32,000 nucleotides of DNA, from NCBI GenBank assembly GCA_963528875.1, contig CAURWT010000001.1, forward strand, positions 120,001 to 152,000. The letters run 5' to 3'. The stretch comes from an uncultured Candidatus Saccharimonas sp. Its GTDB lineage: Bacteria; Patescibacteriota; Saccharimonadia; Saccharimonadales; Saccharimonadaceae. Positions within the stretch are counted from its first letter, which is position 1; each line of letters starts with the position of its first letter. Shown one piece after another: positions 1 through 32,000 of this stretch. The notes under the pieces are model-generated. The model saw only the letters and a list, made by a program, of their open reading frames with translations, ran no database searches and was not told where the DNA came from. The position numbers and the translations under genes were made by a program.

Positions 1-1593
1 ATTTTCAGATCCAGCAAGAACCATATTTGTTTTCAAGATTGCTCCCTTAAGATCAACTTTAAATATCTTTAGTTCCTCAAAAAGTTTTTTAAGAATCTTT
101 TCCGTAACTTCTCGACACTGTTGAATAGTATGTTTTCCAGAATAAACCACCTCTGGCTCAACGATCGGTACAATTCCATAATTCTGGCAAGCTTTAGCAT
201 ATTGCGCCAAAACTCGCAAATTCGAAGTGATTGCAGCTTCGCTTGGCGTTCCTTTTTCTTCATCAATTTCGAAAGCAACTCGCCATTTTGCAAAATCAAT
301 TCCTACTTTTGAATATTTTTGGAGTTTTTCAATCAAGGAATCGAGCCCTATTGAAATCGTCTCACCTTCAAATCCGACTAGAGGACGCAAACCACAGTCA
401 AGCTTCACACCAACCAGAATTCCGCGATTTTTCAAATACTCAACAAAATTAATACCTTCAGAAGTGTTTTGTTCGGTTGTCTCTTCAAAAAGAATAATTC
501 CACTTAAATAATTTTCAATATCTGGTGTTTTGAAAAACATCTCACGATAGGCTCGGCGATTTTCAAAAGTATCTTCAAGCCCAATTGTTTCGAATTTTTT
601 ATGAATATTCCCGCCAGACTCATCTGCAGCAAATATTCCTTTTGGCCGCGCAACTAATTTTGCGGCAGTTTTATGTAATCGTGTTTCAATATCTAGCGTA
701 TTACTCAAAACATCAACAGATAACTCATAGTTTTTACGATTTAAAATTTGATACGCATAAAAAGGCTTCAATATATCATTAAAATCAGATTTATTAGCAA
801 TCGTAACTGCAACTTGCAAATTTTCTTCTAATTTTGAAGAATTCGAAAAATTTTCAGCAACAAAAGCTGCCTGAAAAATATTATTCTGATAAAACGAATT
901 TAATTCGAAATTAGTTTCAATACTAGCAATTTTTTCTTTATTTCCAGCAATTATTTTCGAACCATCAAAAATGACAACGCCTCGCACACCAGTTCTAATT
1001 AGTGAATCTATCGCATTTTCATAACCTGAATAATCAATCAAATCACTTAAATTTTGTTTTCGAAAATCTACAAAAACTAAATTCGCTCGAACGAAAAACT
1101 CATGCGCAAGCTCAGGGCTCAAATCGGCAATATTAAAAACAAGCTCGATCTTTGGATTTTCACGCAAATATTTTTTAAAATCTGCCAGATAATTTTGCGA
1201 AAAATTAGCATCCGCAATATAAATTAAATCTGGTGGAAAAGCTGGCGAAACCCATTTTGTACTACGAGGATTGCTAGTTAAAATAAAACTCTTACCCTTA
1301 TATGAAACTACAAATCGATCAATTAGATCATTATTAATTTCATCATATTCAAAATGAGAAGTACCGTTTGGATTCGCACTTGAAAAAGCCTTAAAGTGTG
1401 CTGCTGTAAAGATTTTTTCACTCAAAATTGTTCCACCATAAACACCAGCTTGTTTTTGATAATTTAAAGTTGAATCATCAAAAGTTAGATCATAATGGAA
1501 ATCATTAAGTTCATCTTTATAAATTTTTTGATTTTGAATGTCTAAAAAGTTATCTTTTGTCGCATTTCCAATCGATAAAATCGTCGGTTTCAT
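1..1593 (-). CDS. fba: Class I (Schiff-base, eukaryote-type) fructose-bisphosphate aldolase preceded by a ~285-aa N-terminal extension; C-terminus runs off the window at position 1
   Basis: Absent from the ORF track (no in-window stop). Hand translation of the minus strand from ATG 1593 (SD AAGGTGG upstream, in-frame TAA at 1603-1605) is open for all 531 codons; I checked triplet by triplet. Residues ~310-531 read AKLVARPKGIFAADESGG..FENRRAYREMF..ILFEET..VGVKLDCG..IDFAKWRV..IVPIVEPEV..AILKTNMV. These match the AADES / VDKG / FAKWR / VEPE / LLKPNM blocks of class I aldolases, including the Schiff-base Lys position. Confidence 0.85.
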   Translation of the reverse strand, partial: MKPTILSIGNATKDNFLDIQNQKIYKDELNDFHYDLTFDDSTLNYQKQAGVYGGTILSEKIFTAAHFKAFSSANPNGTSHFEYDEINNDLIDRFVVSYKGKSFILTSNPRSTKWVSPAFPPDLIYIADANFSQNYLADFKKYLRENPKIELVFNIADLSPELAHEFFVRANLVFVDFRKQNLSDLIDYSGYENAIDSLIRTGVRGVVIFDGSKIIAGNKEKIASIETNFELNSFYQNNIFQAAFVAENFSNSSKLEENLQVAVTIANKSDFNDILKPFYAYQILNRKNYELSVDVLSNTLDIETRLHKTAAKLVARPKGIFAADESGGNIHKKFETIGLEDTFENRRAYREMFFKTPDIENYLSGIILFEETTEQNTSEGINFVEYLKNRGILVGVKLDCGLRPLVGFEGETISIGLDSLIEKLQKYSKVGIDFAKWRVAFEIDEEKGTPSEAAITSNLRVLAQYAKACQNYGIVPIVEPEVVYSGKHTIQQCREVTEKILKKLFEELKIFKVDLKGAILKTNMVLAGSEN

Positions 1594-1659
1594 TTCCCAC
1601 CTTTAAAAATTATTATGCTTTTGCTTAAATTATATCAAATTTTCGAAAATAAATCAAAC

Positions 1660-2985
1660 TTAAAGATTAAACAAATCATTCAGACTTTCAGCCACGGTTG
1701 GGTGGGTAAAAATCTGGTCTCGTAGAACAGTATAATCAAGCCCAGCATCAATCGCCGTTTTTATAATATTTATAACTTCTGGCGAATTATAGCAAAACAG
1801 AGCTGCACCTAAAATTTTATTAGTTTTTGAATCTACAATCGCTCGCAAAAGACCCGCCGTTTTAAATTCAAGCTGAAGTTTTGGTACTGCTGCCGCTGGA
1901 ATCTCCTTTACCTTAATATCGAAACCTTCCGCTAAAGCTTGTTTTTCAGTTAGTCCAACTTTCGAAAACGGAACCTGTAAAAAAATCGAATTCGGCAAAT
2001 TAACACGATTTTTTAGAGAATATTTTCCGTCGCCATAAAACTGTGAGCGCAAAATTCGAAAATCATCTAAAGAAGCATAAGTAAATTGCTCTTTTCCTCT
2101 CACATCACCAACCGCCCAAACTTTTGAATTCGAAGTTTGAAGATTTTCGTCAGTCCAAATTCCGCCATTTTCGAGTGTTTTAATTCCTGCTCGTTCAAGG
2201 TTTAATTTTGCAGTTGCCGGTTTTCGCCCGGTTGAAATTAGTACTTTGTCAAAAGCTAATTTCTTACCATTATTTTGGACTAAAATGCCATTTTCAACAT
2301 TTTCGAAAGCCTCAATATTTGCATTAAACTCAAAATTAATACCTTGCGAAACTAAAAAGTTGAAAATTGCTTTTCGCATCGAATCATCTTCATCAGCTAA
2401 AATTTTATCGCCTCGTTCAAAAATTGTTACTTTCGTGCCCAACTTTGCAAGAGTTGAAGCAAACTCTAGGCCGATAAATCCACCCCCAATAACTGCTAGG
2501 TTGTTAATCACCTCCCGATTCTCAAGAAGCTCTGTACTGGTTAAAATTTTTGAATCCTTCAAACCTTCTTCAATTCCTGAAATTTTAGGAATAAAACTTT
2601 CTGCACCAGTATTAATAATAATCTTATCGGCCGAAAGCTCAAGTTTTTCACCATTCGATTCAACTAAAATTGTGTTTTCATCTAAAAATGAACCAAAGCC
2701 GTCAAAAACCGTAATCGACTCGTTATCTGCAAGCATATGATAATTTTTTGAATTTAGCCGCTGCACAACATCAAATTTTCGCGCAATCGCTTCTTCGAAA
2801 GTTAGATTTTCACTCGCCGCAACTGCTAGAACTTTGGTTGGAATACAAGCAATATTGATGCAGGTTCCGCCATACATTTTCGGCGACTTTTCAATTAATG
2901 CGACTTTTTCACCTTTATTAGCAGCCAGAACTGCCAAAGTTTTTCCAGCTTTTCCAAATCCAATTATAATTTTATCAAATTTCAT
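1660..2985 (-). CDS. rclA: Class I pyridine nucleotide-disulfide oxidoreductase, RclA/YkgC-like flavoprotein
   Basis: 441-aa ORF with SD AAGAGGT. FAD motif IIGFGKAGK, redox-active pair GGTCINIACIPTK, NAD(P)H motif VIGGGFIGLEFA, C-terminal FTHPTVAESLNDLF. From memory, length and blocks resemble E. coli RclA (441 aa) more than lipoamide dehydrogenase. No database search was possible. Confidence 0.85.
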   Translation of the reverse strand: MKFDKIIIGFGKAGKTLAVLAANKGEKVALIEKSPKMYGGTCINIACIPTKVLAVAASENLTFEEAIARKFDVVQRLNSKNYHMLADNESITVFDGFGSFLDENTILVESNGEKLELSADKIIINTGAESFIPKISGIEEGLKDSKILTSTELLENREVINNLAVIGGGFIGLEFASTLAKLGTKVTIFERGDKILADEDDSMRKAIFNFLVSQGINFEFNANIEAFENVENGILVQNNGKKLAFDKVLISTGRKPATAKLNLERAGIKTLENGGIWTDENLQTSNSKVWAVGDVRGKEQFTYASLDDFRILRSQFYGDGKYSLKNRVNLPNSIFLQVPFSKVGLTEKQALAEGFDIKVKEIPAAAVPKLQLEFKTAGLLRAIVDSKTNKILGAALFCYNSPEVINIIKTAIDAGLDYTVLRDQIFTHPTVAESLNDLFNL

Positions 2986-3006
2986 TTTTACCTCTTTTCT
3001 ATTTTA

Positions 3007-3015
3007 ATTTTAACA
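3007..3015 (-). promoter_or_regulatory. Extended -10 element TGTTAAAAT upstream of the rclA-like gene
   Basis: Minus strand reads TGTTAAAAT TAAAAT AGAAAAGAGGTAAAA ATG. The -10 lies 21 nt upstream of ATG 2985. No good -35. Confidence 0.4.
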
Positions 3016-3049
3016 CATTTTACTTAGAAAAGTCTTAAAATTTTAAGAA

Positions 3050-3076
3050 AAAGAAAAAACCCCGAGATTTCGGGAG
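3050..3076 (-). terminator. Intrinsic terminator downstream of tRNA-Asn
   Basis: Minus-strand RNA CUCCCGA-AAUC-UCGGGG followed by UUUUUUCUUUUU. Short GC-rich stem (5-6 bp), tetraloop, U-run. Confidence 0.55.
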
Positions 3077-3083
3077 ATTTTCT

Positions 3084-3158
3084 TGGCTCCGGCAGCTGGG
3101 CTCGAACCAGCGACCTATTGGTTAACAGCCAACCGCTCTACCACTGAGCTATGCCGGA
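3084..3158 (-). tRNA. tRNA-Asn, anticodon GTT, CCA encoded
   Basis: 75 nt. The minus-strand read TCCGGCA-TA-GCTC-AGTGGTA-GAGC-G-GTTGG-CTGTTAA-CCAAT-AGGTC-GCTGG-TTCGAGC-CCAGC-TGCCGGA-G-CCA folds as a canonical cloverleaf with all four stems complementary. Confidence 0.92.
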
Positions 3159-3169
3159 ATAATAATCTT

Positions 3170-3198
3170 ATTATACACGAGTTTTTTAATAATTTCAA
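3170..3198 (-). promoter_or_regulatory. Sigma-70-type promoter for tRNA-Asn
   Basis: Minus strand TTGAAA (3193-3198), 17-nt spacer, TATAAT (3170-3175). The mature tRNA 5' end lies 11 nt downstream of the -10. Confidence 0.7.
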
Positions 3199-3215
3199 GA
3201 CTTTTTTATATTTTT

Positions 3216-3253
3216 TCAGAAAAATCGGCCCACTTTTTTAATGAGCCGATTTC
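3216..3253 (-). terminator. Putative terminator after the ABC permease gene
   Basis: AAAATCGGC (3221-3229) pairs with GCCGATTTT (3245-3253). The 3' arm runs into a U-tract on the minus-strand RNA. The 15-nt loop is large, hence modest confidence. Confidence 0.4.
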
Positions 3254-3260
3254 ATTATCT

Positions 3261-4565
3261 TTATTCAGTTCGAAGAGCCTCAATTGGGTTCATCTTTGCC
3301 GCCTTTCGTGCTGGTAAGAATCCAGAAATCACCGAAAGTAACATCAAACCAACTACCAATAGAATCCAAGCGAATAAATCTGGTTGAAGTAAATTCGTAT
3401 CCACGCCAGAAGTTTTTTGCAGTTTTAAGACACTACTGATTACAGGGTTTAAGAAAGTAATTCCATACGCTACAACAATTCCAATTATTCCACCAAATAA
3501 ACCAATCAGCGCCGCTTCGTATCTAAAAAGTTTCGAAACATCACTCTTTCGCATTCCGAGCGATTTCATTAAACCAATTTGTGAAGTTCGCTCTAAAACT
3601 GAAATATATTGCGTGTTAATAATTCCAAAAGCCGAAGCAAGAAGTGTCAAAAATCCAAATCCAGCAAGACCTGCCGCCATAACATTAATTGCTGTTTGAA
3701 CCGTTGCTTTATCATCTGCAAAAGTGGAAACTTGGTAAAATTCACCACCGTTTAATGCTGTAATTTCCTTTTTAATTTCATCAACTTTTCGTGTGCCGTC
3801 GGTTGTTACGCTAGCACTATAAAACCGCATTTCACCAGAATTTTGCTTTTTCGCAATTTCCAAACCATCACTATTATTCATCCAGAAATTTCCGTGATAG
3901 TTAAAATTAGTATCCGTTTTTCCAGCATCAACTGCTTGAATTTCAAAAGTCTTTTCGAAAGTTTTGCCTTCCGCATCTTTCATTTCGAAAACTACTTTTT
4001 TACCCACAATATCAGCAGGATTTTTACCTCCAAAAGATTCAATATAAGCTTTTGGTGCGATAACTTTTCCATTATCAATTTGATTATTTTTGCTTAGTTT
4101 TCCAGCCGAAAGCCCCATCTCTTGTTCGTCATTTTTAGTGGCAACATATCCGTCGTATTTTATACCATTTTCAGACCGAACAGTCTCAATCTTCACGGGA
4201 ACCGCTGGAGAGACATTTCGAACACCTTTAATTTTTAAAATTTTATCTAAACCTTCCTTCTTAAACGAGTGACTCTCGGCGTCAATTTCAGCTTTTTTCC
4301 TGGCAGCATCTTCACGAGTTGATTCAACCCTATTTGGCGCATAAGGATCTTTTTTATTCTTAATTAATCGCGAGATAGTTAAAGCATTTTGATCACCTAA
4401 TTTATTGGCTAAACTTTCAACATAAGCATTGCCACCCTTTCCGGCTGCAATTGCGAGTGCAACAGTTGTCGCACCAACCGCAATTGCCAAACTTGTCAAA
4501 ATTGTTCGCCCTTTTGCTAAACGAATATTTTTTCCAGCTCGCTTAATAATATCAACTCTACGCAT
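3261..4565 (-). CDS. ABC transporter permease, MacB/FtsX type (N-terminal TM, ~270-aa extracytoplasmic domain, three C-terminal TMs)
   Basis: C-terminal FtsX-like block MKSLGMRKSDVSKLFRYEAALIGLFGG. I prefer ATG 4565 (MRRVDIIKRAG...) because AAGGAG sits 6 nt upstream. The track start at 4580 would contain that SD. Overlaps the ATPase stop as ATGCGTAG. Confidence 0.85.
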   Translation of the reverse strand: MRRVDIIKRAGKNIRLAKGRTILTSLAIAVGATTVALAIAAGKGGNAYVESLANKLGDQNALTISRLIKNKKDPYAPNRVESTREDAARKKAEIDAESHSFKKEGLDKILKIKGVRNVSPAVPVKIETVRSENGIKYDGYVATKNDEQEMGLSAGKLSKNNQIDNGKVIAPKAYIESFGGKNPADIVGKKVVFEMKDAEGKTFEKTFEIQAVDAGKTDTNFNYHGNFWMNNSDGLEIAKKQNSGEMRFYSASVTTDGTRKVDEIKKEITALNGGEFYQVSTFADDKATVQTAINVMAAGLAGFGFLTLLASAFGIINTQYISVLERTSQIGLMKSLGMRKSDVSKLFRYEAALIGLFGGIIGIVVAYGITFLNPVISSVLKLQKTSGVDTNLLQPDLFAWILLVVGLMLLSVISGFLPARKAAKMNPIEALRTE

Positions 4566-5244
4566 TTTTAACTCCTTCAATATGCTCTATTTCGCCATCT
4601 TTTATTCGAATCCGAATATCACATTTTTCTGCTAATTCTTCATCATGAGTAATAATAAATAGCGTTGCACCAGACTTTTTATTATATTCAAAAAGTAATT
4701 TTTCAATTTTTTCACTAGTTGCGGAGTCTAAATTTCCCGTTGGTTCATCCGCAAAAATTATTTCTGGCGAGTTTACAATTGCTCGCGCAATCGCAAGACG
4801 CTGTTTTTGCCCACCCGAAAGGTCGCGGGCTGGTGTTTTGATTTTATCTTTCAAACCAACCGCTTTTAGGGCGTCTTCTACAATTTCTTTCCTTCGAAAA
4901 ATTGGCTCTTCAGAAATTTCAAGTGGCAAACTTACATTTTCGAAACAAGTTTCATTTCCTTGAACGAAAAAGCTTTGAAAAATAAATCCCATTTTTTTCG
5001 AACGAAATTTATCAATCTTCTTTTGATTAATTGATAAAATATTTACTCCGTCCATTAAAACTTCACCTTTTTCTGGAGCGTCTAGGCCACTCATTGCATG
5101 AATTAGTGTTGATTTTCCACTTCCCGATTTCCCAATAATCGCCACGCTTGAACCATTTTCAATCTTGAAACTCACATCTTTTAATGCCTGAAAACGATTC
5201 TTCTTTTTGCCGTAAATTTTTGAAATATTTCGAACTTCAATCAT
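4558..5244 (-). CDS. ABC transporter ATP-binding protein (MacB/LolD-like)
   Basis: Walker A GKSGSGKST, signature LSGGQKQR, Walker B IIFADEPTGNLD, H-loop ITHD. SD AAAGGAGG. Confidence 0.93.
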   Translation of the reverse strand: MIEVRNISKIYGKKKNRFQALKDVSFKIENGSSVAIIGKSGSGKSTLIHAMSGLDAPEKGEVLMDGVNILSINQKKIDKFRSKKMGFIFQSFFVQGNETCFENVSLPLEISEEPIFRRKEIVEDALKAVGLKDKIKTPARDLSGGQKQRLAIARAIVNSPEIIFADEPTGNLDSATSEKIEKLLFEYNKKSGATLFIITHDEELAEKCDIRIRIKDGEIEHIEGVKNA

Positions 5245-5257
5245 ATTCCTCCTTTAG

Positions 5258-6838: not shown

Positions 6839-6846
6839 ATTTCTCC

Positions 6847-7188: not shown

Positions 7189-7196
7189 ACTTCTAT

Positions 7197-7223
7197 GTTA
7201 TACAAGGTAGCTTAAAAAGTCAA
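7197..7223 (-). promoter_or_regulatory. Putative promoter of the padR operon
   Basis: Minus strand TTGACT (7218-7223), 15-nt spacer, TATAAC (7197-7202), then 8 nt to ATG 7188 with no clear SD. Implies a very short or absent 5' UTR. Confidence 0.4.
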
Positions 7224-7234
7224 GTACTTTTTTC

Positions 7235-7274: not shown

Positions 7275-7281
7275 AAGATTT

Positions 7282-8295
7282 TTACATTAATCCATTCGGA
7301 TTTTTACTTTGCCAATTCCACGAATCTCGACACATCTCCTCAAGTGTTTTTTCGGTTTTCCAGCCAAGTTCTTTTTCAACCTTGGCAACATCGGCATAAC
7401 AAAATGCAATATCACCTGCACGGCGTGAGGTAATTTCGAAAGGAATCTTTTTGCCAGAGGCTTTTTCGAAAGCACGAACTAGCTCCAAAACACTCACTCC
7501 CGAGCCTGAACCAAGATTATAAATTTTAACGCCACCATTCTTACGGTTATTTTCTAATGCTTTCAAATGACCCTTAGCTAAATCTACAACATGAATATAG
7601 TCACGCACGCCTGTACCATCAGGAGTTTCGTAATCATCGCCAAAAATTGAAAGTTTTTCTCGTTTTCCAATGGCAACTTGAGAAATATACGGCATCAAAT
7701 TATTCGGAATTCCTTGCGGATCTTCACCGATTAAACCGCTTTCATGTGCACCAATTGGGTTGAAATATCGCAAAATCGTAATCGACCAGTGCGTATCAGC
7801 CTTTACTAAATCTTTCAAAATATGTTCAATCACAACTTTAGTATATCCATAAGGATTCGTTGCTGTTTCGCAAGGCATTTCTTCTCGATAAGGAACTGGA
7901 TTTTTGTCGCCATAAACTGTCGCGCTCGAAGAAAAAACAATATCATAAACGTTAAACTCTCGCATAATTTCCAAAAGAGAAATCGTTCCTTGAATATTGT
8001 TTTTATAGTATTTAAGTGGCTTCCCAACGCTTTCGCCAACTGCTTTTAAGCCTGCAAAATGCATCACTTGTTCAATATTATTTTCTTGAAAAATTTTTCG
8101 AAGACCATCTTTATTTAAAATATCAACTTCATAAAATTTAAAATCCTTGCCTGAAATTTCATGAATTCTCTCTAAAGCTTTAGGTTTCGAATTTACAAAA
8201 TTATCAATAATTATAACTTCTTCATTATTTTCAAGAAGTTCAATTGAAGTGTGGGCACCGATAAATCCTGCGCCACCAGTTACTAAAATTGCCAT
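7282..8295 (-). CDS. galE: UDP-glucose 4-epimerase
   Basis: 337 aa. Rossmann VTGGAGFIGAH, catalytic YGYTK (YxxxK), SDR-extended architecture. SD AAGGAAG. Confidence 0.93.
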   Translation of the reverse strand: MAILVTGGAGFIGAHTSIELLENNEEVIIIDNFVNSKPKALERIHEISGKDFKFYEVDILNKDGLRKIFQENNIEQVMHFAGLKAVGESVGKPLKYYKNNIQGTISLLEIMREFNVYDIVFSSSATVYGDKNPVPYREEMPCETATNPYGYTKVVIEHILKDLVKADTHWSITILRYFNPIGAHESGLIGEDPQGIPNNLMPYISQVAIGKREKLSIFGDDYETPDGTGVRDYIHVVDLAKGHLKALENNRKNGGVKIYNLGSGSGVSVLELVRAFEKASGKKIPFEITSRRAGDIAFCYADVAKVEKELGWKTEKTLEEMCRDSWNWQSKNPNGLM

Positions 8296-8372: not shown

Positions 8373-11183
8373 CTAAAGAATATTTTTAAGATATTTTCCC
8401 GTCCAGCTCTTTTCGACTTTTGAAACCTGTTCTGGAGTTCCAGTCGCCACAACAGTTCCACCACCCGCTCCACCTTCTGGGCCCATATCAATTAGCCAGT
8501 CAGCACTTTTAACAATATCTAAATTATGTTCAATTATTACCATTGAATTTCCGGCATCAACCAAACGGTTCAAAATTGAAAGCAATCTTTTTACATCTGC
8601 ATTATGAAGACCAGTCGTTGGCTCGTCCAGAATATACATTGTTTTACCAGTTGAAGCCCGAGCAAGCTCAGTAGCAAGTTTAATTCGTTGCGCCTCACCG
8701 CCTGAAAAAGTTGTTGCAGGTTGCCCAAGTTTAATATAGCCTAGACCAACTTCTTGAATCGTTTTTAATTTTCGATGAATTGCAGGAATATTTTCGAAGA
8801 ATTCTGTTGCTTCATCAATTGTCATATCCAAGACATCTGAAATTGTTTTTCCTTTATAAAGAATCTCCAGCGCCTCGCGATTATATCGCTTTCCATGGCA
8901 AACATCACATTCTACATAAACATCTGGCAAAAAATGCATCTCAATCTTAATCACACCGTCACCTTGACAGTTTTCACATCGGCCACCTTTAACGTTAAAG
9001 CTAAATCGACCAGCTTTATAGCCACGAATATTTGCTTCTGGCGTGCCAGCAAAAAGCTCACGAATCTGCGTAAAGACACCAGTATAAGTTGCGGGATTCG
9101 AACGTGGCGTACGGCCAATCGCACTTTGATCAATCACAATTGCTTTATCTAATTTTTCTAATCCCAAAATTTCATCATGCGCACCAGGAACTTCTTGTGC
9201 ACGGTGCTTTCGTGCTAACAATTCTTTACTTAAAATTTCATTCACCAAGGTTGATTTTCCACTGCCCGAAACTCCAGAAACTACCGTCATTACACCTAGC
9301 GGAATCTCAACGTTAATATTTTTCAGATTATTTTCTCGTGCATTTTTAATCACCAATTTTTCATTTTTCTGAATTTTTCGGCGCTTTTTTGGTGTTTGGA
9401 TTTTATCTTTTCCGCTTAAAAATTGCCCTGTTAAAGATTTAGGATTTTTCGAAACCTCTTCAGGTGTGCCTGAAGCCACAATCATTCCACCATTTACGCC
9501 AGCGCCAGGACCAACATCAACTAACCAATCTGCCGCCCGAATAGTATCTTCATCATGCTCAACAACTAACACGGTATTATTTAAATCACGGAGATTTTTT
9601 AGCGTAGCAATTAGTTTGTCGTTATCTCGCTGATGAAGGCCAATCGAAGGCTCATCTAAAACATAAAGCACACCTTGAAGCCCTGAACCAATCTGCGTCG
9701 CCAAACGAATTCGCTGCGCTTCACCACCGCTCAAAGTATTAGCTGCGCGCGAAAGCTCCAAATAGTTCAGACCAACATTATTCATAAAGCCTAACCTCGA
9801 AGAAATCTCTTTTAGAATTTGAGTTGAAATAAATTTTTGCTGTTCATTTAGCTCTAAATTTTTGAAAAGTTCAACAGCTTCATCAATTGCAAGATCACAA
9901 ATTTCCACGATGTTCAAACCGGCAACCGTCACAGCAAGAACAACAGGTTTCAATCGCTTTCCGCCACAAGTTTGACATTTTCGAACACGCATAAACCGCT
10001 CAATATCTTTACGCTGAAATTCGCTACCCGTATCGCGATGGCGACGCTCCAAATTCGGAATTACGCCTTCAAAATTCATATTATAAACACGGCCGTTCAT
10101 TTCGATCGGATATTTTTCGTCTGTTTTTGTGCCGTATAGAATAATTTCAATCGCTTCTTTCGAAAGCTTCTTGGTTGGGGCTTTTGTTGAAAATCCATGA
10201 CGTTTTGCAACCTCCTCAAGCAATTTAATTCGATAGCCCTTCTCCATCACACGATTATAAGGCCGAATTGCACCTTCAGAAATTGTTAAATTTGGTGAAA
10301 GCACCAATTCTGGATCAATTTCCATTCGTGTTCCAAGACCCGAACAAGTTTCGCAAGCTCCTTGTGGTGCATTGAATGAAAATAATCGTGGTTCAAGTTC
10401 AGGAATATGCTCATCTGGGTGAAGTTCACAAGCATAGCGTTGAGAAAAAATCTTCACCTCGCCAGTTTCATCATTCAAAATCTCTAAAATTCCGCTAGTC
10501 ATTTCAAGCGCTTGTTCAACACTTTGAGCTAAACGTGTTCGCATCTCTTTCGAAAGCACCAAACGGTCAACTACAATTTCGATATTATGCTTAATATTCT
10601 TTTCAAGCCCAGGGAATTCATCCAAAGCGTAAATCACTCCATCAACCCGCGCACGAGCAAAACCTTTTTTCGAAAATTCTTCAGGGATATGCGCAAATTC
10701 ACCTTTTTTAGCTTTTGCAATTGGCGCAAGCAATATCAACCGTGAACCTTCTTCAAGATTCATGATACTATCAACAATACTTTGCGGTGTACGCCGAACA
10801 ACATCTCGACCACAAATTGGACAATGTGGCGTACCGATTCGTGCAAAAAGAAGACGCAAATAATCATAGATTTCAGTTACAGTTGCTACAGTTGAGCGCG
10901 GATTGCGACTGGTAGATTTTTGATCAATTGAAATAGCTGGGCTGAGTCCCGTAATTTGATCTACATCTGGCTTATCCATTGTGCCTAAAAATTGGCGAGC
11001 ATAAGAATTTAAACTTTCCATATAACGGCGCTGGCCTTCCGCATAAATTGTATCAAATGCTAAACTTGACTTTCCACTACCAGAAAGCCCCGTTATCACC
11101 ACTAATTTGTCACGCGGAATTTTTAAATCTACATTTTTTAAATTATGTTCACGCGCACCTTTAATTTCTAAAAAATCAGCCAT
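8373..11183 (-). CDS. uvrA: Excinuclease ABC subunit A
   Basis: 936 aa. Two ABC modules (GLSGSGKSS and GVSGSGKST Walker A; two LSGGEAQR signatures). Zinc-finger CxxC pairs ([25 protein letters not shown]...CDVCHG). Confidence 0.97.
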
Positions 11184-11208: not shown

Positions 11209-11868
11209 TCATATAGTTTTCGGCGGTATAGCCTTTACAAAGTTAATTTTTAGCCCTTCTGCCGTAAAACGTTTCTCATAAGTTGTCATCACTTTGTAAT
11301 TTTCGTTCAAATTACTTTCATGTAAATCGAAACTAAGACGTTCAATTTTCCAACCTTCTGATACAAGCTGTTCCAAACTCCATTCGAAAAGATTCTTAGC
11401 ATCAGTTTTAAAGTAGAGCGCACCATCTTCAGCCAAAAGCTTAGCATAAATTCGCAAAAAAGTTGGGTGCGTTAAGCGGCGGCCCGAATTACGCTCACGT
11501 GGGTAAGGGTCAGGAAAGGTCACCCAAAGATATTTTACTAAATTTTCACCAAAAGCTTCAAGAAGTTGGTCGGCTCGTGCTCTCAAAAAACGAATATTTT
11601 TAACACCATCTTGCTCAGCTTGAATAGCGCCTTTAACTAGTCGGTCGGCTTTAACATCAACCGCCACAAAATTCTTCATTGGATTTTTTGTTGCCAAAGC
11701 TTCACTAAAAAGCCCTGTTCCTGCACCAATTTCTAAATTATTAACTTCAGCATTTTCTTTTTGCCATTCATTGAATTCAAAACAAATTGCAGAATTATTG
11801 AAAAGCGCAAATTTATAAAGTTTACGCTTGCGAGTAATAATAAAATCTTTCGGATTTAAAAAAGCCAT
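11209..11868 (-). CDS. trmB: tRNA (guanine-N7)-methyltransferase
   Basis: 219 aa. SAM motif [10 protein letters not shown] and [15 protein letters not shown] block typical of TrmB. SD AAAGGAG. Ends in TGA immediately upstream of the uvrA SD. Confidence 0.88.
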
Positions 11869-20444: not shown

Positions 20445-20446
20445 TA

Positions 20447-27724: not shown

Positions 27725-29151
27725 TATTTTGCTCCTCTTCGAAAAATTACACTTGCAACAGTTTTAAATAAAATTTGAATATCAAAAATAATTGACCAGT
27801 TTTGAACATAATAAACATCCAGCCTACGACGTTCTTCGAAAGAAATATCACGACGACCTGAAACCTGGGCCAATCCAGTGACGCCAGCTTTTACCGCCAA
27901 AATAATATTTTTTCTATTTGATTTGTTAATCTCTTGTGGAATTAAAGCCCGAGGACCAACAAGTGAAATATCGCCACGAACAACATTAAAAAGCTGCGGT
28001 AGTTCATCAATAGAGGTAGCGCGAATAAATTTTCCAATTTTTGTAATTCTTGGGTCATTATCAAGCTGATCGCCATTTTTGCGATATTCTTTTGCAAGCT
28101 CAGGTTTTCCTATTTTTTCGAAAGCCTGCTCTGGCGTTAAGCCGTCAAATTCAGCCTTTTGTGAGCGAAATTTATAGATATAAAACTCCCGATTGAAGCG
28201 TGTTAGACGAACTTGCCTAAAGAAAATTGAATCTTTAGGATTGGTAATCTTCATAATGATCGCCACAATTAACATTATCGGTGAAACTAAAATTAAACCA
28301 AAGATTGCTAAAGTTAGATCCATTAAACGCTTCCATATTCGACCCATTCCAAACAATTTTGTAATTTTTACATCAATAATTGGGGTTCCGCCAATAACTT
28401 CGATTGTATTAATCTGCGAAAGAAGCCTATCTTGTTGTGGAACAAACATATACTCAAGGTGATTTTCGATCGCATAGTTATAAATATCTTCACTCCTAAG
28501 CGTATCGGTTTGAATTAAAATATCAGGATTTGTTTTTAAAGCTGCATCTTTAAAACTCGCAAAATGGCGAACAGCCGATTTTGTTGGCAAAAATTGACTT
28601 TTCGAAACCATTCCAATCACATCATAACCAAAATCAATATTGTCATGAAAAAATTGAGCTAATTCTGTTGAACGAGAGTTCGAACCAATAATTAAAACTT
28701 TTTGGCGACCAAAACCACTTCGAATCAAAGCGCGGCGAATAAAACGCACTATTTCACGACCAAGAATCATCATTAAGAAATTAATTGGAACAAAAAAAAC
28801 TGCAATTATTCGAACTGGAAAAACTTCATCACCAGTGAAAAATTCATAAGAAATCATCGCCATGATACTAATTATCGAAACAACTAAAGCTCTACCATAC
28901 TCTTTTGGTCGATAAAAAAATACCGAACGGTCATAAAGGCCAAAGAAATAATTAATAGCCAGCCAAAGTGGCAAGAGAGAAACCGCCAAAAATACAAAAT
29001 TCCAGATATTTGGTGCAAAATAATACGCACGCGAATCAAGATGAGTTCGTGCAAAATAAGCAAACATAAACGAACTAACAACTGCTAAGGTATCAGACAA
29101 TACTAAATTGACTTTAAATATGGTTATTTTATCTTTTTTCATTACGGCCAT
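27724..29151 (-). CDS. Polyprenyl-phosphate hexose-1-phosphate transferase (WbaP/CpsE-like priming sugar transferase)
   Basis: 475 aa. N-terminal TMs, central Rossmann-like linker, Bac_transf blocks RLMDLTLAIFGLILVSPIML, KFRSQ, DPRITKIGKFIRATSIDELPQLFNVVRGDISLVGPR. SD GGAGGTG. Confidence 0.92.
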   Translation of the reverse strand: MAVMKKDKITIFKVNLVLSDTLAVVSSFMFAYFARTHLDSRAYYFAPNIWNFVFLAVSLLPLWLAINYFFGLYDRSVFFYRPKEYGRALVVSIISIMAMISYEFFTGDEVFPVRIIAVFFVPINFLMMILGREIVRFIRRALIRSGFGRQKVLIIGSNSRSTELAQFFHDNIDFGYDVIGMVSKSQFLPTKSAVRHFASFKDAALKTNPDILIQTDTLRSEDIYNYAIENHLEYMFVPQQDRLLSQINTIEVIGGTPIIDVKITKLFGMGRIWKRLMDLTLAIFGLILVSPIMLIVAIIMKITNPKDSIFFRQVRLTRFNREFYIYKFRSQKAEFDGLTPEQAFEKIGKPELAKEYRKNGDQLDNDPRITKIGKFIRATSIDELPQLFNVVRGDISLVGPRALIPQEINKSNRKNIILAVKAGVTGLAQVSGRRDISFEERRRLDVYYVQNWSIIFDIQILFKTVASVIFRRGAK

Positions 29152-30670
29152 TATACACCTCCAATATAAAATTTAAACCAAACGCAGCGCCTACTATAAA
29201 AATAGGTAAATATATAAAAATATATCTTGCCCTACTTTCAAATAAAACCTGATATGCAACTACTAAAAGAGTGAAAAATAGTAAAACTAAATGATAGTGT
29301 TTAAACTTATTAGCTGATTTAAAGATAAAAATTGTAAATAAAGTAAGAATAGCTCCCCATACAATAGAAATAAAAACACTAAATAGCCGAAATTTATCAC
29401 CGTTCCAAGATAGAAAACGCCTAAATTTATGCACTATATTACCTTCAGCTAAAAACTGTATGAAATTATTTCTATTAGAACCCTCTCCCCACACTCCGAA
29501 TGTTCCGTCGTTAAAGAAATTCGAAATCTTTAAAATAGCAAATTTGAGCCATCCAAAAGGAAAATTATTCGTCAAACTATCAATAAATATATTTAAACTT
29601 ACTTTCTCACGCTCTCTTGCGCCTTTAGTAGCAGTATCATCAGCATATCTTGGGCAATATGATCCAGTATTACATTCATTATAAGGTGGAAGTCCTCGCA
29701 TAGATCCCATACCTAAATAATGCAAAAATCCAGTTCTTTTTTCGCGTATTTGACTACTGGAATATTTTGCAAAACCGTTAGAAGATACAATTAAAGTATT
29801 CAATACGAAAAAGGAAGAAACCGCTCCAAATATAAATAAACCAAAATATTTTGCGATTATTTTAACATTTCGACATCTATTTATAAAAAATAACGAAGAT
29901 AGAAATATTGATATCATCAATATTAAAGTAGTAGGCTTTATAGCATACCCTAAGTAAGCAAAAATTCCTAATAATATAGTTAAGATCTTTAGTATGTAGC
30001 CATTGCCTTTTTTTGCATATAATTCAATAAGTAAAAGAATAAATAATTGAGAAGCAACAAAAAACAGACCGACAGTATCCGTATAAAATACCGTAGAATA
30101 TGGAGAAAAGTTTATTATAGCAATAATAAATGTTGATATAATAGAAAATACATATTTATTAAATTTAACATAGATAATAGCCATTATAAACAATGAAGAA
30201 AGAAGAATTAATATATTATTTATAAAAATTAGAAGTATATCTTTATCAATACCCACAAAATTAGCTATACGATATATTATTACTACAAAATAAGTTATAG
30301 TTATATTATTATCATATCTCAATAAATAATTATATTCCCAAGCCTTATCGTCTGGATCAGTGTTACCAGTTTTTATATAATTATTAGCTATGGTTTGTAT
30401 AGCACCAGCATCCCAAGAGTGTTGTGTTGAGGCAGTAGAAAAGCCAGTTATCATTTGAGAGATTAAAGCAATAAAAATAAAGAATACAAGCAGAGTTTTC
30501 TTACTAAATTTTTTAGATAATAAAAAAACCGCCACAACAAATAAAATCAATAATATTGTTACAACTAATACTTTATAAGAATCATATATACTGAATATAT
30601 TTTTCGAAAGACCAAATATGCCAAATATTAAGCTGATAAGAGAAAATAATCTTAATGCCTTAATTACCAT
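29129..30670 (-). CDS. Large polytopic membrane protein, tentatively a GT-C-fold (ArnT/PMT-like) glycosyltransferase
   Basis: About 13 hydrophobic helices with a ~110-aa hydrophilic loop near the C-terminal third. The function is tentative; the CDS itself is solid. I prefer ATG 30670 (MVIKALRLF...) because the track's GTG 30688 lies upstream of an extended -10 element. Confidence 0.6.
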   Translation of the reverse strand: MVIKALRLFSLISLIFGIFGLSKNIFSIYDSYKVLVVTILLILFVVAVFLLSKKFSKKTLLVFFIFIALISQMITGFSTASTQHSWDAGAIQTIANNYIKTGNTDPDDKAWEYNYLLRYDNNITITYFVVIIYRIANFVGIDKDILLIFINNILILLSSLFIMAIIYVKFNKYVFSIISTFIIAIINFSPYSTVFYTDTVGLFFVASQLFILLLIELYAKKGNGYILKILTILLGIFAYLGYAIKPTTLILMISIFLSSLFFINRCRNVKIIAKYFGLFIFGAVSSFFVLNTLIVSSNGFAKYSSSQIREKRTGFLHYLGMGSMRGLPPYNECNTGSYCPRYADDTATKGAREREKVSLNIFIDSLTNNFPFGWLKFAILKISNFFNDGTFGVWGEGSNRNNFIQFLAEGNIVHKFRRFLSWNGDKFRLFSVFISIVWGAILTLFTIFIFKSANKFKHYHLVLLFFTLLVVAYQVLFESRARYIFIYLPIFIVGAAFGLNFILEVYNGRNEKR

Positions 30671-30676
30671 GTCATC

Positions 30677-30685
30677 ATTATAACA
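30677..30685 (-). promoter_or_regulatory. Extended -10 element TGTTATAAT, 6 nt upstream of ATG 30670
   Basis: Minus strand TGTTATAAT GATGAC ATG. No SD. Confidence 0.5.
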
Positions 30686-30720
30686 CACGCTAATCCAATA
30701 TTCAATTTCAACACACTGTA

Positions 30721-30729
30721 TGCTATAAT
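30721..30729 (+). promoter_or_regulatory. Extended -10 element TGCTATAAT, 7 nt upstream of ATG 30737
   Basis: Plus strand TGCTATAAT GGTATAT ATG. No SD. An in-frame ATG at 30728 lies inside the -10. Confidence 0.5.
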
Positions 30730-30736
30730 GGTATAT

Positions 30737-32000
30737 ATGAAAAGTATAGAAGAGACTAAATTATCTATAGTAGTAACAGCCCATAACGAAGGATTGTATC
30801 TATATAAAACAATATTATCCATAGAAAAATCTATAGAACTGTTACCCGAAATAAGCTATGAAATAATTATAAGTCTAGATAATCCAGATGATGAAACTAT
30901 AAGAGTTGCTAAATTTTTGAGTAAGAAAAAACAAATCAGAATATTCGAATCATCTTTCGGAAACCCTGCAGATAATAGAAATTTTGCAATTTCGAAAGCA
31001 AAAGGATCAATATGTGCGCTTATAGATGGCGATGATCTAGTGTCTAAGAATTGGTTCAAGAATGGATTAGAAAAATTAAAAGAAAACGAAAATTCAATTA
31101 TTAGGCCTCAAATACATGCAATGTTTGGTACACGCATGAATTCTCTATCAATATGGCAAATGCGAAATTCTACAGAAAAAAATATAGACTCTATACAGAT
31201 GTCATATTGGAATCCATGGACATTAACTTTAATAGCTAAAACAGAGTTATTAAAAGATACGCCATTCAAACCCCAAAAAGGAGGTTTTGGATTCGAGGAT
31301 TATCTATTTAACTGTGATATTATTTCTAAAAATATACCCATACTTATTGCGCCTGAAACTACTTTCTTCTATCGCCAGCGACCTAACGTCTCGGTATCAA
31401 CCCAACACAAAAATACAATCCTAGACTATTCAGATCTGTTCGATATAGAATATATTAAGTCAGTCGAAATGCCAACACCTCAAAAAAAGACAAGCTCTAG
31501 GATTAATATTAAAAAATATTATCGAGCACTATACGATATTGCAAAAAAATCAGAGAATATAAGAAGGGCTATGTCGCCAGTAGCATCAAGAATCCTGAGC
31601 AAAAAAAATATGAAAAAGCTCCCTACCTTCTTTATTGAAGATTGGCGAGAAATTAATGCTATAGAAAATCAACTCTACCCCACGAAAGAAAAAATATCAC
31701 AAGTAGAATTTCATCCACTAACTTTTAACCCATTAGACAATGAGTATGGAATCGTATATAAAAAGCTATGCGAACAGATATCTGGAAATAATATAGATTA
31801 TTTGTTCTTAGCACCTGCTATGAGCGGAAGGGGCGGAACAGAAAAGTTAATTTCTAACTATATCAGAGCTTTAAAAGAGATTCACCCTAAATGGAATATA
31901 GGAATATTATCGACACAGCCTTTTAATAAGCCAACTATCGATTTTTTCAGTAATTTAGGCGTAGATCTAATAGATTTCGGAAGATTAACTAAAAAAATGG
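30737..32000 (+). CDS. Two-domain glycosyltransferase: N-terminal GT2 (GT-A) domain plus the start of a C-terminal GT-B-like domain; 3' end runs off the window
   Basis: Absent from the ORF track. Hand translation is open from ATG 30737 to 32000 (421 codons, checked triplet by triplet). The N-terminus has LSIVVTAHNEG and ALIDGDD (DxD). From about residue 350, IDYLFLAPAMSGRGGTEKLISNY resembles the N-terminal glycine-rich loop of GT4-type enzymes. Confidence 0.85.
   Translation, partial: MKSIEETKLSIVVTAHNEGLYLYKTILSIEKSIELLPEISYEIIISLDNPDDETIRVAKFLSKKKQIRIFESSFGNPADNRNFAISKAKGSICALIDGDDLVSKNWFKNGLEKLKENENSIIRPQIHAMFGTRMNSLSIWQMRNSTEKNIDSIQMSYWNPWTLTLIAKTELLKDTPFKPQKGGFGFEDYLFNCDIISKNIPILIAPETTFFYRQRPNVSVSTQHKNTILDYSDLFDIEYIKSVEMPTPQKKTSSRINIKKYYRALYDIAKKSENIRRAMSPVASRILSKKNMKKLPTFFIEDWREINAIENQLYPTKEKISQVEFHPLTFNPLDNEYGIVYKKLCEQISGNNIDYLFLAPAMSGRGGTEKLISNYIRALKEIHPKWNIGILSTQPFNKPTIDFFSNLGVDLIDFGRLTKKM

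Follow-up and report, generated by a model that had tools for sequence, protein, structure and literature searches.

The TTCGAA Sites of the Window

The window, that is, the whole 32,000-nt stretch analysed here, is housekeeping DNA of a Candidatus Saccharimonas-like bacterium. Saccharibacteria are tiny bacteria that live on other bacteria. The genes in the window include an aldolase gene, a pyridine-nucleotide-disulphide oxidoreductase gene, galE, uvrA and a trmB-like gene (Table 1). An exact count gave 105 copies of the palindrome TTCGAA, about 1 per 305 bp, against 10.6 expected from independent bases. This bears out the sequence-only reading of the same DNA, which had put the number by eye at about 100, a roughly nine-fold excess over an expectation of 10–12. 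The control palindromes ATCGAT and AACGTT, each also expected 10.6 times, occur 9 and 5 times (earlier estimates, about 8 and about 4), and 54% of the 195 TCGA tetramers in the window lie within TTCGAA, consistent with the earlier figure of more than half. TTCGAA is by far the most over-represented of the 64 palindromic hexamers in the window, and the CV of its spacing within 49 kb is 1.03, which cannot be told from random placement.

Three copies fall in the 1,196 non-coding bases, where about 0.4 would be expected from base composition. As previously claimed, two of them are in spacers, and the third is at the loop of a hairpin downstream of galE, which by RNA folding has a 13-bp stem and a 4-nt loop (−11.0 kcal/mol) and is followed by a T-run.

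Table 1. Positions of the TTCGAA copies and associated features in the window.
Feature	Position	Strand	Description
TTCGAA array	1..32000		105 copies, 42 of them the full octamer TTTCGAAA, placed at random
TTCGAA starts (1)	221, 268, 589, 842, 904, 956, 1059, 1642, 1961, 2055, 2129, 2302, 2794, 3269, 3532, 3954, 3984, 4217, 4605, 4893, 4939, 4997		
TTCGAA starts (2)	5229, 5511, 5616, 5767, 5907, 6018, 6278, 6697, 7255, 7435, 7465, 8097, 8186, 8793, 9097, 9448, 9980		
TTCGAA starts (3)	10159, 10549, 10669, 11193, 11383, 11971, 11993, 12606, 12711, 12768, 13148, 13241, 13400, 14165		
TTCGAA starts (4)	15042, 15163, 15283, 15340, 15807, 15986, 16251, 16977, 17115, 17138, 17589, 17616, 17754, 18107, 18535, 19381, 19578, 19892		
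TTCGAA starts (5)	20283, 20940, 21006, 21337, 21411, 21514, 22610, 23100, 23635, 24917		
TTCGAA starts (6)	25051, 25093, 25514, 25877, 26249, 26621, 26646, 26699, 27171, 27247, 27393, 27472, 27558, 27738, 27835, 28117, 28601, 28679, 28719, 28809, 29520, 30603, 30944, 30991		
Non-coding TTCGAA	1642..1647		Spacer, aldolase gene/pyridine-nucleotide-disulphide oxidoreductase gene
Three-phase TTCGAA trio	1961..2307	-	In gene 1660–2985: 2302, TTC GAA (FE); 2055, xTT CGA Axx (FRI); 1961, xxT TCG AAx (FSK)
tRNA-Asn	3084..3158	-	Unoccupied here; integration site in relatives
Non-coding TTCGAA	7255..7260		Loop of terminator-like hairpin downstream of galE (7282–8295, - strand)
uvrA	8373..11183	-	7 TTCGAA
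Non-coding TTCGAA	11193..11198		Spacer, trmB-like gene (11209–11868)/uvrA
Low-use segment	29129..32000		Hypothetical CHIM_prot gene and glycosyltransferase gene running off the window; GC 27–32%

Null Models and Codon Choice

In an AT-rich genome, the word could simply follow from the codons, dipeptides or dinucleotides in use (TCG, CGA, TTC-GAA). TCG and CGA are indeed unusually common codons here, and of Markov models of order 1–4, which predict 23.2, 41.8, 53.5 and 89.9 copies, the last gives 90 of the 105. However, the order-4 prediction is circular, because the pentamers are themselves built from the word. Dinucleotide-preserving shuffles yielded 23.76 ± 4.88 copies (maximum 36), and none of 100 reached 105. 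Compared to 104 copies in coding DNA, permutation of synonymous codons gave 28.6 ± 4.6, permutation of third positions with dinucleotides also kept gave 49.6 ± 5.1, and shuffling of the codon order gave 22.9 ± 4.9, with control words at expectation in the codon-aware nulls. The excess in the window thus survives all of the Markov, dinucleotide- and codon-preserving nulls to which the sequence-only reading had pointed, and the codon- and dinucleotide-preserving shuffles give only 23–50 copies.

The word is found in all three phases, with 24 copies read as TTC GAA, 28 as xTT CGA Axx and 52 as xxT TCG AAx; the three examples reported earlier inside one gene were verified (Table 1). It occupies 104 of the 224 places where the protein permits it (≈46%), or 49, 48 and 44% by phase. 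TTC encodes 24 of the 42 Phe residues preceding GAA, compared to 18% elsewhere; CGA encodes 28 of the 35 Arg residues in the xTT_Axx context (26–42% elsewhere); and TCG encodes 52 of the 93 Ser residues in the xxT_AAx context (11–19% elsewhere). The preference noted earlier in the aldolase gene was confirmed: GAA follows 3 of 6 TTC codons, but only 4 of 31 TTT codons. TCG, CGA and TTC are thus picked only where they complete the word. Furthermore, non-coding DNA is enriched as well, and a sister lineage of the same GC, with homologous proteins, uses 12% of its opportunities rather than 46%. The by-product explanation is refuted by these data and retains hardly any credibility: TTCGAA itself is favoured, not its codons or dinucleotides.

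The Octamer

The flanking bias toward T on the 5′ side and A on the 3′ side, previously described, is present at 69 and 65 of the 105 sites, respectively. The full octamer, TTTCGAAA, occurs 42 times in the window against 1.2 expected, and is the top 8-mer (z = 31). The excess of TTCGAA rises from 2.5× with no matching flank to 9× with one and 35× with two, and T..A flanks surround 42% of the sites, compared to ≈15% of control TTNNAA words. At 15% divergence, cognate flanks were conserved in 62 of 62 cases and non-cognate flanks in 28 of 34. The constrained unit is therefore nearer to tTTCGAAa, in which the six core positions and the two flanks are all constrained.

Dimeric DNA-binding proteins typically recognise extended, graded palindromes of this kind, here 8 bp long with conserved flanks. 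The sites might be occupied by an abundant protein specific to the clade that associates with the nucleoid or organises the chromosome. Xu et al. suggested binding of this kind for the cyanobacterial palindrome HIP1 (GCGATCGC), and retention of the TTCGAA sites (see below) would fit it. However, the spacing is random within 49 kb, there is no reason for the core of a mobile element to be selected to the same density, and no candidate protein is in view, making this explanation quite improbable.

Distribution among Relatives

All comparisons with relatives were anchored on uvrA. Only four lineages show the excess, and they form a single young clade with at least 84% identity between members. 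There is no excess in the sister lineage L183 (76% identity, similar GC), in which homologous proteins use 8 of 67 opportunities, nor in ≈160 other loci that were compared. The bias arose after the split from this sister and persists in four descendant lineages, and the origin of the iteration is very recent, inside this clade. Neither the restriction to a young clade nor the conserved octamer had been noticed in the sequence-only reading.

Across five lineages, the TTCGAA copies in uvrA occupy a mosaic of the same 8 positions. One of them lies on an invariant RSN tripeptide and is therefore pure codon choice, while others occur where the residue in the window departs from the outgroup majority (VSK vs VAK, VRK vs ERK).

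Islands inserted at tRNA-Asn in relatives provided natural controls for accumulation of the word. The L001 island contains 2 copies in 4.3 kb. In the L184 integrative element, the word fills 12 of 37 opportunities in the 4.2-kb mobility core (12 copies), but 2 of 56 in the 6.75-kb defence cargo (2 copies). Newly acquired DNA thus lacks the word and the old core of a resident mobile element carries it, a pattern of amelioration. A recombinase has an identical protein sequence in lineages 15% apart, and uvrA of L183 matches the L001 type at 95% identity, whereas identity between its flanking DNA and the window is 76%; both appear to be signs of DNA exchange inside the clade.

The drop in density that had been described after about 29,150 is real but mild (4 sites vs 9.9 expected, P = 0.03). 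It reflects a smaller share of available positions being used: the last two genes of the window use 4 of 19 synonymous opportunities and the next 8.7 kb use 22 of 66, compared to 100 of 205 upstream. This polysaccharide-gene cluster may be younger in this genome, which would explain the low use.

Retention, Loss and Gain of Sites

Conservation of the sites in related genomes was among the checks that the sequence-only reading had proposed. TTCGAA sites are kept better across relatives than control palindromes of the same composition. The Jaccard indices of site sharing were 0.76, 0.41 and 0.56 for TTCGAA and 0.51, 0.19 and 0.22 for the controls (P = 1e-4 to 2e-3). Against L183, sharing was not above that of the controls, and one-off variants of the word were not conserved above controls. 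Polarised losses numbered 8, compared to 17.9 expected (P = 0.0075), and loss SNPs 15, compared to 31.1 (P = 0.001), so that sites are lost about half as fast as matched neutral change would predict, both within the CpG and outside it. The CpGs in the word mutate no faster than other CpGs (6 changes vs 10.8 expected), an argument against 5-methylcytosine that does not extend to m6A or m4C. For gains, no rise over the neutral expectation could be detected (4 observed vs 2.5 expected, and 5 vs 5.2), although the power of this comparison is low.

Differences between close relatives are mostly TTCGAA versus TTTGAA or TTCAAA, and the CG/(TG+CA) ratio is 1.14 in the TTCGAA context, against a median of 0.26. 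Both observations would fit the model that Elhai put forward for HIP1, a mutational ratchet driven by motif-directed mismatch repair. In a heteroduplex, the strand with the perfect (methylated) word would serve as template, so that near-cognates turn into the word and sites already present are restored (PMC4390886; discussed in PMC5861425). Such a ratchet would also match a bias that touches anything replicating in the cell, the mobile-element core included. However, in its broad form it is a hypothesis for every organism, and the gains show no measurable increase; we consider it an unlikely explanation.

The narrow form of the ratchet is Vsr-type T:G repair, acting on the CpG only. The Dcm/Vsr footprint in E. 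coli is likewise an over-represented palindrome (CCWGG, a methylation site) in which C-to-T neighbour exchange dominates recent differences. According to analyses by Bhagwat and McClelland and by Merkl and Fritz, Vsr reportedly acts only on T:G at methylated C, and T-containing neighbours are depleted. The TTCGAA data differ in three respects, on which the narrow form fails. The Arg and Ser codon choices make the word by non-CpG changes, with CGA favoured over AGA and CGT in the TT_A context; protection of the non-CpG positions is no weaker than that of the CpG (2 losses vs 7.1 expected); and the transition neighbours TTTGAA and TTCAAA are not depleted, totalling 25 in the window type and 15 in the unenriched sister over the same aligned 8.6 kb. 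The earlier proposal that the word is promoted as DNA, through a positive role or a directional process, stands, but one of its four candidates, context-specific repair, does not in the strict Vsr/T:G sense.

Comparison with Known Systems

A real word-level bias, whatever reads the word, is very likely. As the sequence-only reading had argued, this is not a dipeptide or codon effect: the excess survives the nulls, is equal in the frames, is clade-specific, and is absent from recently acquired DNA, and the sites are retained better than controls. The evidence thus rules out restriction avoidance, repair confined to the CpG, and a mere by-product of codons or dinucleotides. TTCGAA has the same six bases as the recognition site of the BstBI/AsuII/NspV enzyme family, and might have been the target of a restriction-modification system of that specificity. 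However, such targets are avoided (in Microcystis, with NspV, TTCGAA occurs once per 209 kb), whereas here the hexamer is ten-fold enriched in chromosomal DNA, with enrichment in a resident mobile element too, and this explanation is almost certainly wrong.

The best explanation is that tTTCGAAa is a lineage-specific, highly iterated palindrome, which a genome-wide, frame-blind, weak but persistent bias would drive into all long-resident DNA of this Saccharibacteria clade and keep there. It resembles the self-marking DNA words (HIP1, uptake sequences) of a few other bacterial groups. For HIP1, methylation and transformation are the current leads (PMC4390886, PMC5861425, bioRxiv 10.1101/2024.09.10.611283, 10.64898/2026.06.24.733823). 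Like HIP1 and the alternative cyanobacterial palindromes, TTCGAA is a short and strongly over-represented palindrome, reaching up to about one copy per gene, and it falls in every reading frame as well as outside genes. In both cases, sites are conserved between related genomes above control palindromes and above the same codons elsewhere, the outer positions are softer than the 6-bp core, and the preferred word is lineage-specific. HIP1 is a GC-rich octamer containing GATC, whereas the present word is rich in AT and has a core of six bases centred on CpG, and its host belongs to a different phylum, the Saccharibacteria/Patescibacteria, with genomes of ≈1 Mb. Its excess is smaller (10× for the hexamer and 35× for the octamer, compared to 15–300× for HIP1), its origin is very recent, and one-off variants, conserved for HIP1 (HIP1*), are not conserved here.

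Two orphan methyltransferases recognise HIP1. By the same token, an orphan DNA methyltransferase could modify TTCGAA and serve an intracellular function (repair strand discrimination, replication timing or gene regulation), with site density held by selection and no role in uptake. TTCGAA is a known methylation motif in a thermophile genome, with the last A modified; the sharp, palindromic 6-bp core is like that of type II methyltransferase sites, and the sites are retained while one-off variants are not conserved above controls. On the other hand, the conserved T/A flanks exceed a hexamer site, no methyltransferase was found in 49 kb, and some 3 sites per kb, each under very weak selection, would be hard for selection alone to keep in a small-genome symbiont. 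Nor, to our knowledge, does enrichment reach ten-fold at the orphan targets that are well studied (Dam GATC, CcrM GANTC). An orphan methyltransferase target is thus possible, but not likely.

The uptake sequences of the Pasteurellaceae (USS) and Neisseriaceae (DUS) are likewise scattered over coding DNA without regard to frame, with at least about one copy per kb. They are clade-specific, carry graded information beyond the core, reflect a weak bias rather than strong per-site selection, and are carried at the cost of codon choice and some amino-acid choices. They differ from TTCGAA, a palindrome of 6–8 bp, in being 9–12 bp long and non-palindromic, with an uptake preference shown experimentally. 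In Campylobacter jejuni, we know of no strong over-representation of RAATTY as part of the system. There, uptake by a naturally competent host is limited to DNA methylated at this hexamer, which, like TTCGAA, is short, AT-rich and palindromic (PMC10046745). In C. jejuni the word itself is already common, and it is its methyl group that serves as the self mark.

By analogy with these systems, tTTCGAAa may be a self-DNA tag read in natural transformation, a reading that we favour only tentatively. The word would be recognised, possibly only if methylated, when DNA is taken up or when the incoming DNA recombines, and incoming alleles with it would replace alleles without it, as proposed for Haemophilus and Neisseria uptake sequences and recently for HIP1. 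Methylation of HIP1 raised transformation up to 100-fold (bioRxiv 10.1101/2024.09.10.611283), and Saccharibacteria are described as naturally competent via ComEC (PMC10633639). The 49 kb of genome examined contained no competence gene, DNA receptor, DNA methyltransferase or endonuclease, so that the link to uptake is one of analogy. Several observations stand against a tag. An AT-rich word of 6–8 bp discriminates foreign DNA only modestly, known uptake sequences are longer and non-palindromic, the spacing is random rather than even, gains are not detectably raised, and cultured Saccharibacteria were transformed with synthetic DNA, with no sequence requirement recorded in the relevant passages of PMC10633639. 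Any process favouring the whole word inside the cell fits the data equally.

The numbers are consistent with a stationary fixation bias of scaled strength S ≈ 2. The odds ratio between 46% and 12% use of available positions is 6.4, and S ≈ 2 predicts 6.1 losses and 5.5 gains on two recent branches, on which 8 and 4 were seen.

Excess of TTCGAA over null models

The window consists of ordinary Saccharibacteria (TM7) chromosomal DNA with a G+C content of 34.1%, comprising mostly housekeeping genes, nearly all on the minus strand. Its UvrA shares 99% identity with the UvrA of a MAG labelled as Candidatus Saccharimonas sp.; the next-nearest matches are other Saccharibacteria. The other genes encode an aldolase, a disulphide oxidoreductase, an ABC/FtsX pair, PspC, PadR, GalE, TrmB, AspRS, a DsbA-like protein, a TylF-like methyltransferase, an arginine deiminase cluster, MscS, LytR, an O-antigen ligase and glycosyltransferases. 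CpG is undepleted despite the low G+C content (observed/expected 1.22), and on recent branches synonymous CpG transitions are only ≈1.6 times faster than non-CpG ones (10.4% vs. 6.5%). Features of the window and of the relatives' loci compared with it (L-numbers) are listed below; uvrA served as the anchor for these comparisons.

Positions of features in the window and in related loci
Feature	Locus	Position	Strand
tRNA-Asn; integration hotspot	Window	3084-3158	-
uvrA	Window	8373-11183	-
Polysaccharide-gene segment	Window	after 29129	
Restriction-modification island (4.3 kb)	L001	18100-22424	
Integrative element at tRNA-Asn	L175	18058-22811	
Integrative element at tRNA-Asn (at least 11.6 kb)	L184	1-11600	
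uvrA	L183	10001-12811	
LGFP-repeat protein gene with ≈80%-identical internal repeats (≈4.5-4.9 kb past the window's right end)	L087	3814-4151	

The sequence-only reading had described a strong excess of the hexamer TTCGAA. An exact count gave 105 copies, above the expectation of every null model, and the counts of control words and every detailed site example in that reading were confirmed on recheck. The excess survives the codon- and dinucleotide-preserving nulls, which predict 23-50 copies against the 104-105 found. The Markov order-4 figure is not a true null, since TTCGA and TCGAA, the pentamers behind it, are mostly part of TTCGAA itself. The codon nulls are conservative, since the codon usage that they retain is already inflated by the hexamer (TCG 141, CGA 143). 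Ten control words were at expectation under the codon-aware nulls.

Copies of TTCGAA expected in the window under null models
Null model	Expected	Observed
Independent bases	10.6	105
Markov order 1	23.2	105
Markov order 2	41.8	105
Markov order 3	53.5	105
Markov order 4	89.9	105
Dinucleotide-preserving shuffles	23.76 ± 4.88 (maximum 36)	105
Synonymous-codon permutation	28.6 ± 4.6	104 (coding)
Third-position permutation preserving amino acids and all dinucleotides	49.6 ± 5.1	104 (coding)
Codon-order shuffle	22.9 ± 4.9	104 (coding)

A bias at the DNA level

As the sequence-only reading had also claimed, the hexamer occurs in all three codon phases (24, 28 and 52 copies) and in non-coding DNA, where 3 copies were found in 1,196 bases against ≈0.4 expected (Poisson P ≈ 0.008). 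We counted as an opportunity every place where the protein sequence permits TTCGAA through synonymous codons. In the window, 104 of 224 opportunities are used, at nearly the same rate in each phase (49%, 48% and 44%). Codon choice shifts sharply where a codon would complete TTCGAA. Phenylalanine before GAA is encoded by TTC in 24 of 42 cases, compared to 18% elsewhere and 10% before other codons starting with G. Between xTT and Axx, arginine is encoded by CGA in 28 of 35 cases; with the left context alone the figure is 2 of 35, and otherwise it is 26-42%. Serine between xxT and AAx is encoded by TCG in 52 of 93 cases, compared to 11-19% otherwise. The force that favours TTCGAA thus acts on the DNA and is blind to reading frame. 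An origin as a by-product of codon or dinucleotide usage is ruled out by the null models, by this context-dependent codon choice and by the unenriched sister lineage, L183.

At two of the TTCGAA copies in uvrA (codons at nt 1730 and 1198 of the gene), the window has residues unlike the majority of 37 outgroup UvrA proteins (VSK vs. VAK and VRK vs. ERK), which hints that TTCGAA may have cost some amino-acid replacements. Positions capable of TTCGAA are 25% denser per residue than in L183 (2.16% vs. 1.73%), in gene sets that differ between the two.

Constraint extends beyond the hexamer. The octamer tTTCGAAa was found 42 times against 1.2 expected, and TTTCGAAA is the top over-represented 8-mer, with no unrelated word near it. 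T before and A after the core occur jointly at 42% of the sites, compared to ≈15% for control TTNNAA words, and the excess over base composition rises from ≈2.5-fold with neither flank to 9-fold with one and 35-fold with both. At cores conserved between lineages 15% apart, the cognate flanking base was kept in 62 of 62 cases and the non-cognate base in 28 of 34. Hexamers with one mismatch to TTCGAA were not conserved above controls.

Distribution in the clade and maintenance of sites

Besides the window type, three lineages are enriched, and the four are mutually 84-95% identical. No comparable excess of TTCGAA was found in ≈160 other uvrA-region loci from Saccharibacteria and other bacteria. 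The sister lineage L183 (sample ERZ28634918, G+C 37%) uses only 8 of 67 synonymous opportunities and has no other enriched palindrome; the trait therefore arose after the L183 split and before the four lineages diverged. A scan of metagenome contigs for intermediate relatives returned only outgroups of at most 75% identity, none of them enriched, and two scans of viral contigs, for relatives of the replication protein of the element described below and for dense tTTCGAAa, gave nothing usable. In the distant outgroups, uvrA alone is syntenic, and its 7 sites are anecdotal as evidence of orthologous states. A UvrA protein search yielded no intermediate lineages, the matches listed all being variants at least 99% identical; these amount to more than 120 distinct variants on hundreds of contigs from many samples. 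The organism is thus very widely sampled, which makes a large-scale population analysis feasible.

Retention of sites was compared with that of pooled control palindromes of the same composition, in a test modelled on one used for HIP1, a cyanobacterial highly iterated palindrome (PMC5861425).

Abundance of TTCGAA and sharing of sites with the window
Lineage	Identity to window	TTCGAA abundance	Jaccard, TTCGAA	Jaccard, controls	P
Window type		3.3 per kb			
L001 type	95%	9x over base composition	0.76	0.51	1e-4
L002	85%	8x over base composition	0.41	0.19	2e-3
L184 type	84%	3.45 per kb	0.56	0.22	3e-4
L183 (unenriched)	≈76% (flanking genes)		0.12	0.12	n.s.

Sites are maintained and are not mere leftovers. 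For the window and L001 branches, 650 substitutions were polarised against L002 and L184 as outgroup, and the expected numbers were matched for the type of mutation, for CpG context and for whether a change was synonymous. There were 8 losses of TTCGAA against 17.9 expected (P = 0.0075), and 4 gains against 2.5. In 1,234 polarised SNPs from eleven L001-type strains, a set that overlaps partly with the branch substitutions, there were 15 losses against 31.1 expected (P = 0.001), and 5 gains against 5.2. Conservation of codons inside vs. outside the motif had the expected direction for CGA and TCG and showed no difference for TTC, in an underpowered comparison. A simple stationary model fits these data: use of 46% vs. 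12% of opportunities gives an odds ratio that would correspond to a scaled bias S of ≈1.9, under which the two branches should together show 6.1 losses and 5.5 gains.

Fewer sites than expected were lost both at the CpG (6 against 10.8) and across the remaining four positions (2 against 7.1). The latter figure speaks against one candidate of the sequence-only reading, context-specific repair, in its strict Vsr-type, CpG-only form. Such repair produces an excess only by T-to-C change at methylated CpG and depletes the neighbouring TG/CA words, and neither is seen here. AGA-to-CGA and CGT-to-CGA choices also create TTCGAA, and the neighbours TTTGAA and TTCAAA are commoner, not rarer, than in the sister lineage (25 vs. 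15 in the same 8.6 kb). In this alignment the TTYRAA family as a whole is also more frequent (60 vs. 31), which we read as creation of TTCGAA followed by C-to-T decay. Codon choice, protection outside the CpG and undepleted transition neighbours thus all contradict the strict repair model. The CpGs of the motif mutate no faster than other CpGs and so give no support for 5-methylcytosine, but this says nothing about N6-adenine methylation, which TTCGAA carries in a thermophile genome.

Acquired DNA and a mobile element

The window has no insertion at its tRNA-Asn site, which is occupied in relatives. The L001 island contains 2 copies of TTCGAA against 15.5 expected at core density (P = 2.5e-5); its proteins include one of 621 aa with two DPPY methyltransferase motifs and an HNH-like one of 401 aa. 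The integrative element of L175 and L184-L186 falls into two parts. The mobility core encodes a serine recombinase, a Rep-like (Phage_CRI-like) protein, SpoVG and an excisionase-like HTH protein (HTH_17); TTCGAA occurs there 12 times in 4.2 kb, with 12 of 37 opportunities used. The 6.75 kb of defence cargo, in contrast, carry 2 copies, with 2 of 56 opportunities used; encoded there are an 833-aa C5+Eco57I methyltransferase, a 417-aa protein and Hachiman HamA/HamB (HamA and a DEAD-box helicase). Lower use also accounts for the two-fold fall in density that the sequence-only reading had placed after ≈29150: the polysaccharide-gene segment uses 4 of 19 opportunities and the next 8.7 kb 22 of 66, compared to 100 of 205. 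Resident DNA carries TTCGAA and newcomer DNA is without it; from the contrasts between island, cargo, core and segment it follows that the word accumulates with residence time in the clade. The long-resident mobile element is under the same force as the chromosome.

The methyltransferases beside the relatives' tRNA-Asn are rejected as the cause of TTCGAA, since they belong to strain-specific cargo and contain almost no copies of the word themselves. A role as a restriction target of BstBI/NspV specificity is excluded by the direction of the effect. A type II target would be expected to be avoided in host and mobile elements (in Microcystis with NspV, TTCGAA occurs once per 209 kb), whereas here both the chromosome and the core of the resident element are ten-fold enriched in the site.

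DNA evidently moves within the clade. The element's recombinase (P0121) is 100% identical in protein sequence between L184-L186 and L175, whose host chromosomes are ≈15% apart, and the element therefore moved recently between species of the clade. In L183, uvrA matches the L001 type at 95% identity and the window at 91%, compared to ≈76% identity of its flanks to the window, and the gene order (CBS protein, uvrA, aldolase) is unlike that of the window; this mosaic reflects either a recent inter-lineage transfer or a chimeric metagenome contig.

A possible self-DNA tag

We favour, by analogy, a role of TTCGAA as a tag of self DNA that would be read at uptake or recombination, possibly through methylation, and that could have spread by biased replacement of alleles. 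This preference rests on the movement of DNA within the clade and on three parallels. In recent work, methylated HIP1 sites are reported to raise natural transformation up to 100-fold (bioRxiv 10.1101/2024.09.10.611283), and HIP1 abundance is reported to track proteins that its authors call a type IV secretion system and link to DNA uptake. In Campylobacter jejuni, uptake is restricted to DNA that is methylated at RAATTY, a palindromic hexamer (PMC10046745). Natural competence through ComEC has been shown for Saccharibacteria outside this clade (PMC10633639).

Some observations do not favour the tag. Gains were not measurably raised, and within the window and its 17 kb flanks (49 kb) the spacing is random (CV 1.03), with none of the evenness expected under selection for site density. 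No reader or writer was found in the same 49 kb: Pfam searches of all ORFs, hypothetical ones included, detected no DNA methyltransferase, endonuclease, Vsr or competence protein, and the only methyltransferases are the tRNA methyltransferase TrmB and the TylF-like O-methyltransferase, which the unenriched sister also has. The same sequence statistics also fit an in-cell role of methylated TTCGAA, a motif-directed repair ratchet or a nucleoid protein that binds the word.

Relation to known iterated words

Hyper-abundant short palindromes such as HIP1 have posed a puzzle of origin and function for ≈30 years, partly because the cyanobacterial trait is ancient and phylum-wide. TTCGAA parallels these palindromes point by point, except in host, sequence and magnitude: it is a short palindrome far above composition, Markov and codon nulls, found in every reading frame as well as outside genes, and kept between relatives above control palindromes of the same composition. 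HIP1 is a cyanobacterial GCGATCGC or a GC-rich variant, while here the host belongs to the Saccharibacteria and the word is tTTCGAAa, which therefore works like HIP but is not HIP1. With the uptake sequences of Pasteurellaceae and Neisseriaceae (USS/DUS) it shares its population behaviour: it is clade-specific, occurs about once per kb or more in genes and spacers, and is rare in recently acquired DNA. USS and DUS differ in being non-palindromic 9-12-mers, often in inverted pairs at terminators, compared to a palindrome of 6-8 bp here.

We regard TTCGAA as a word of the HIP/USS type whose phylum is new, whose composition differs and whose recent origin can be dated. A full-text literature search, incomplete in coverage, returned no report of TTCGAA over-representation, of a relevant Saccharibacteria methylome or of an uptake sequence in the phylum. 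With more doubt than confidence, we consider it possible that TTCGAA evolved recently as a DNA word for self-recognition in a bacterium of the candidate phyla radiation, and that it is the first HIP/USS-like tag system for uptake or recombination outside Proteobacteria and Cyanobacteria, possibly methylation-dependent. If so, the system has been caught near its origin, with an unenriched sister at 76% identity, and a simple comparison of gene content could therefore reveal the gene that reads the word. The same kind of signal is present here in a genome of ≈1 Mb, with a recent origin and hundreds of metagenomes, and is directly testable through gene content of enriched vs. sister lineages, population fixation bias, and uptake and transformation in a naturally competent phylum. 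TTCGAA is also a strong binning marker for the clade and a clock of gene residence time, which here told islands, cargo and core apart, and tTTCGAAa may serve as a design rule for transforming these bacteria.

In five Clostridia/Lachnospiraceae-like loci (L034, L042, L057, L038 and L078), another palindrome, TCCGGA, was strongly over-represented. L034, for example, has 36 copies where a first-order Markov model predicts 4.6, and L042 has 31 where 6.7 are predicted. A codon effect may lie behind this excess, or TCCGGA may be a further iterated palindrome.
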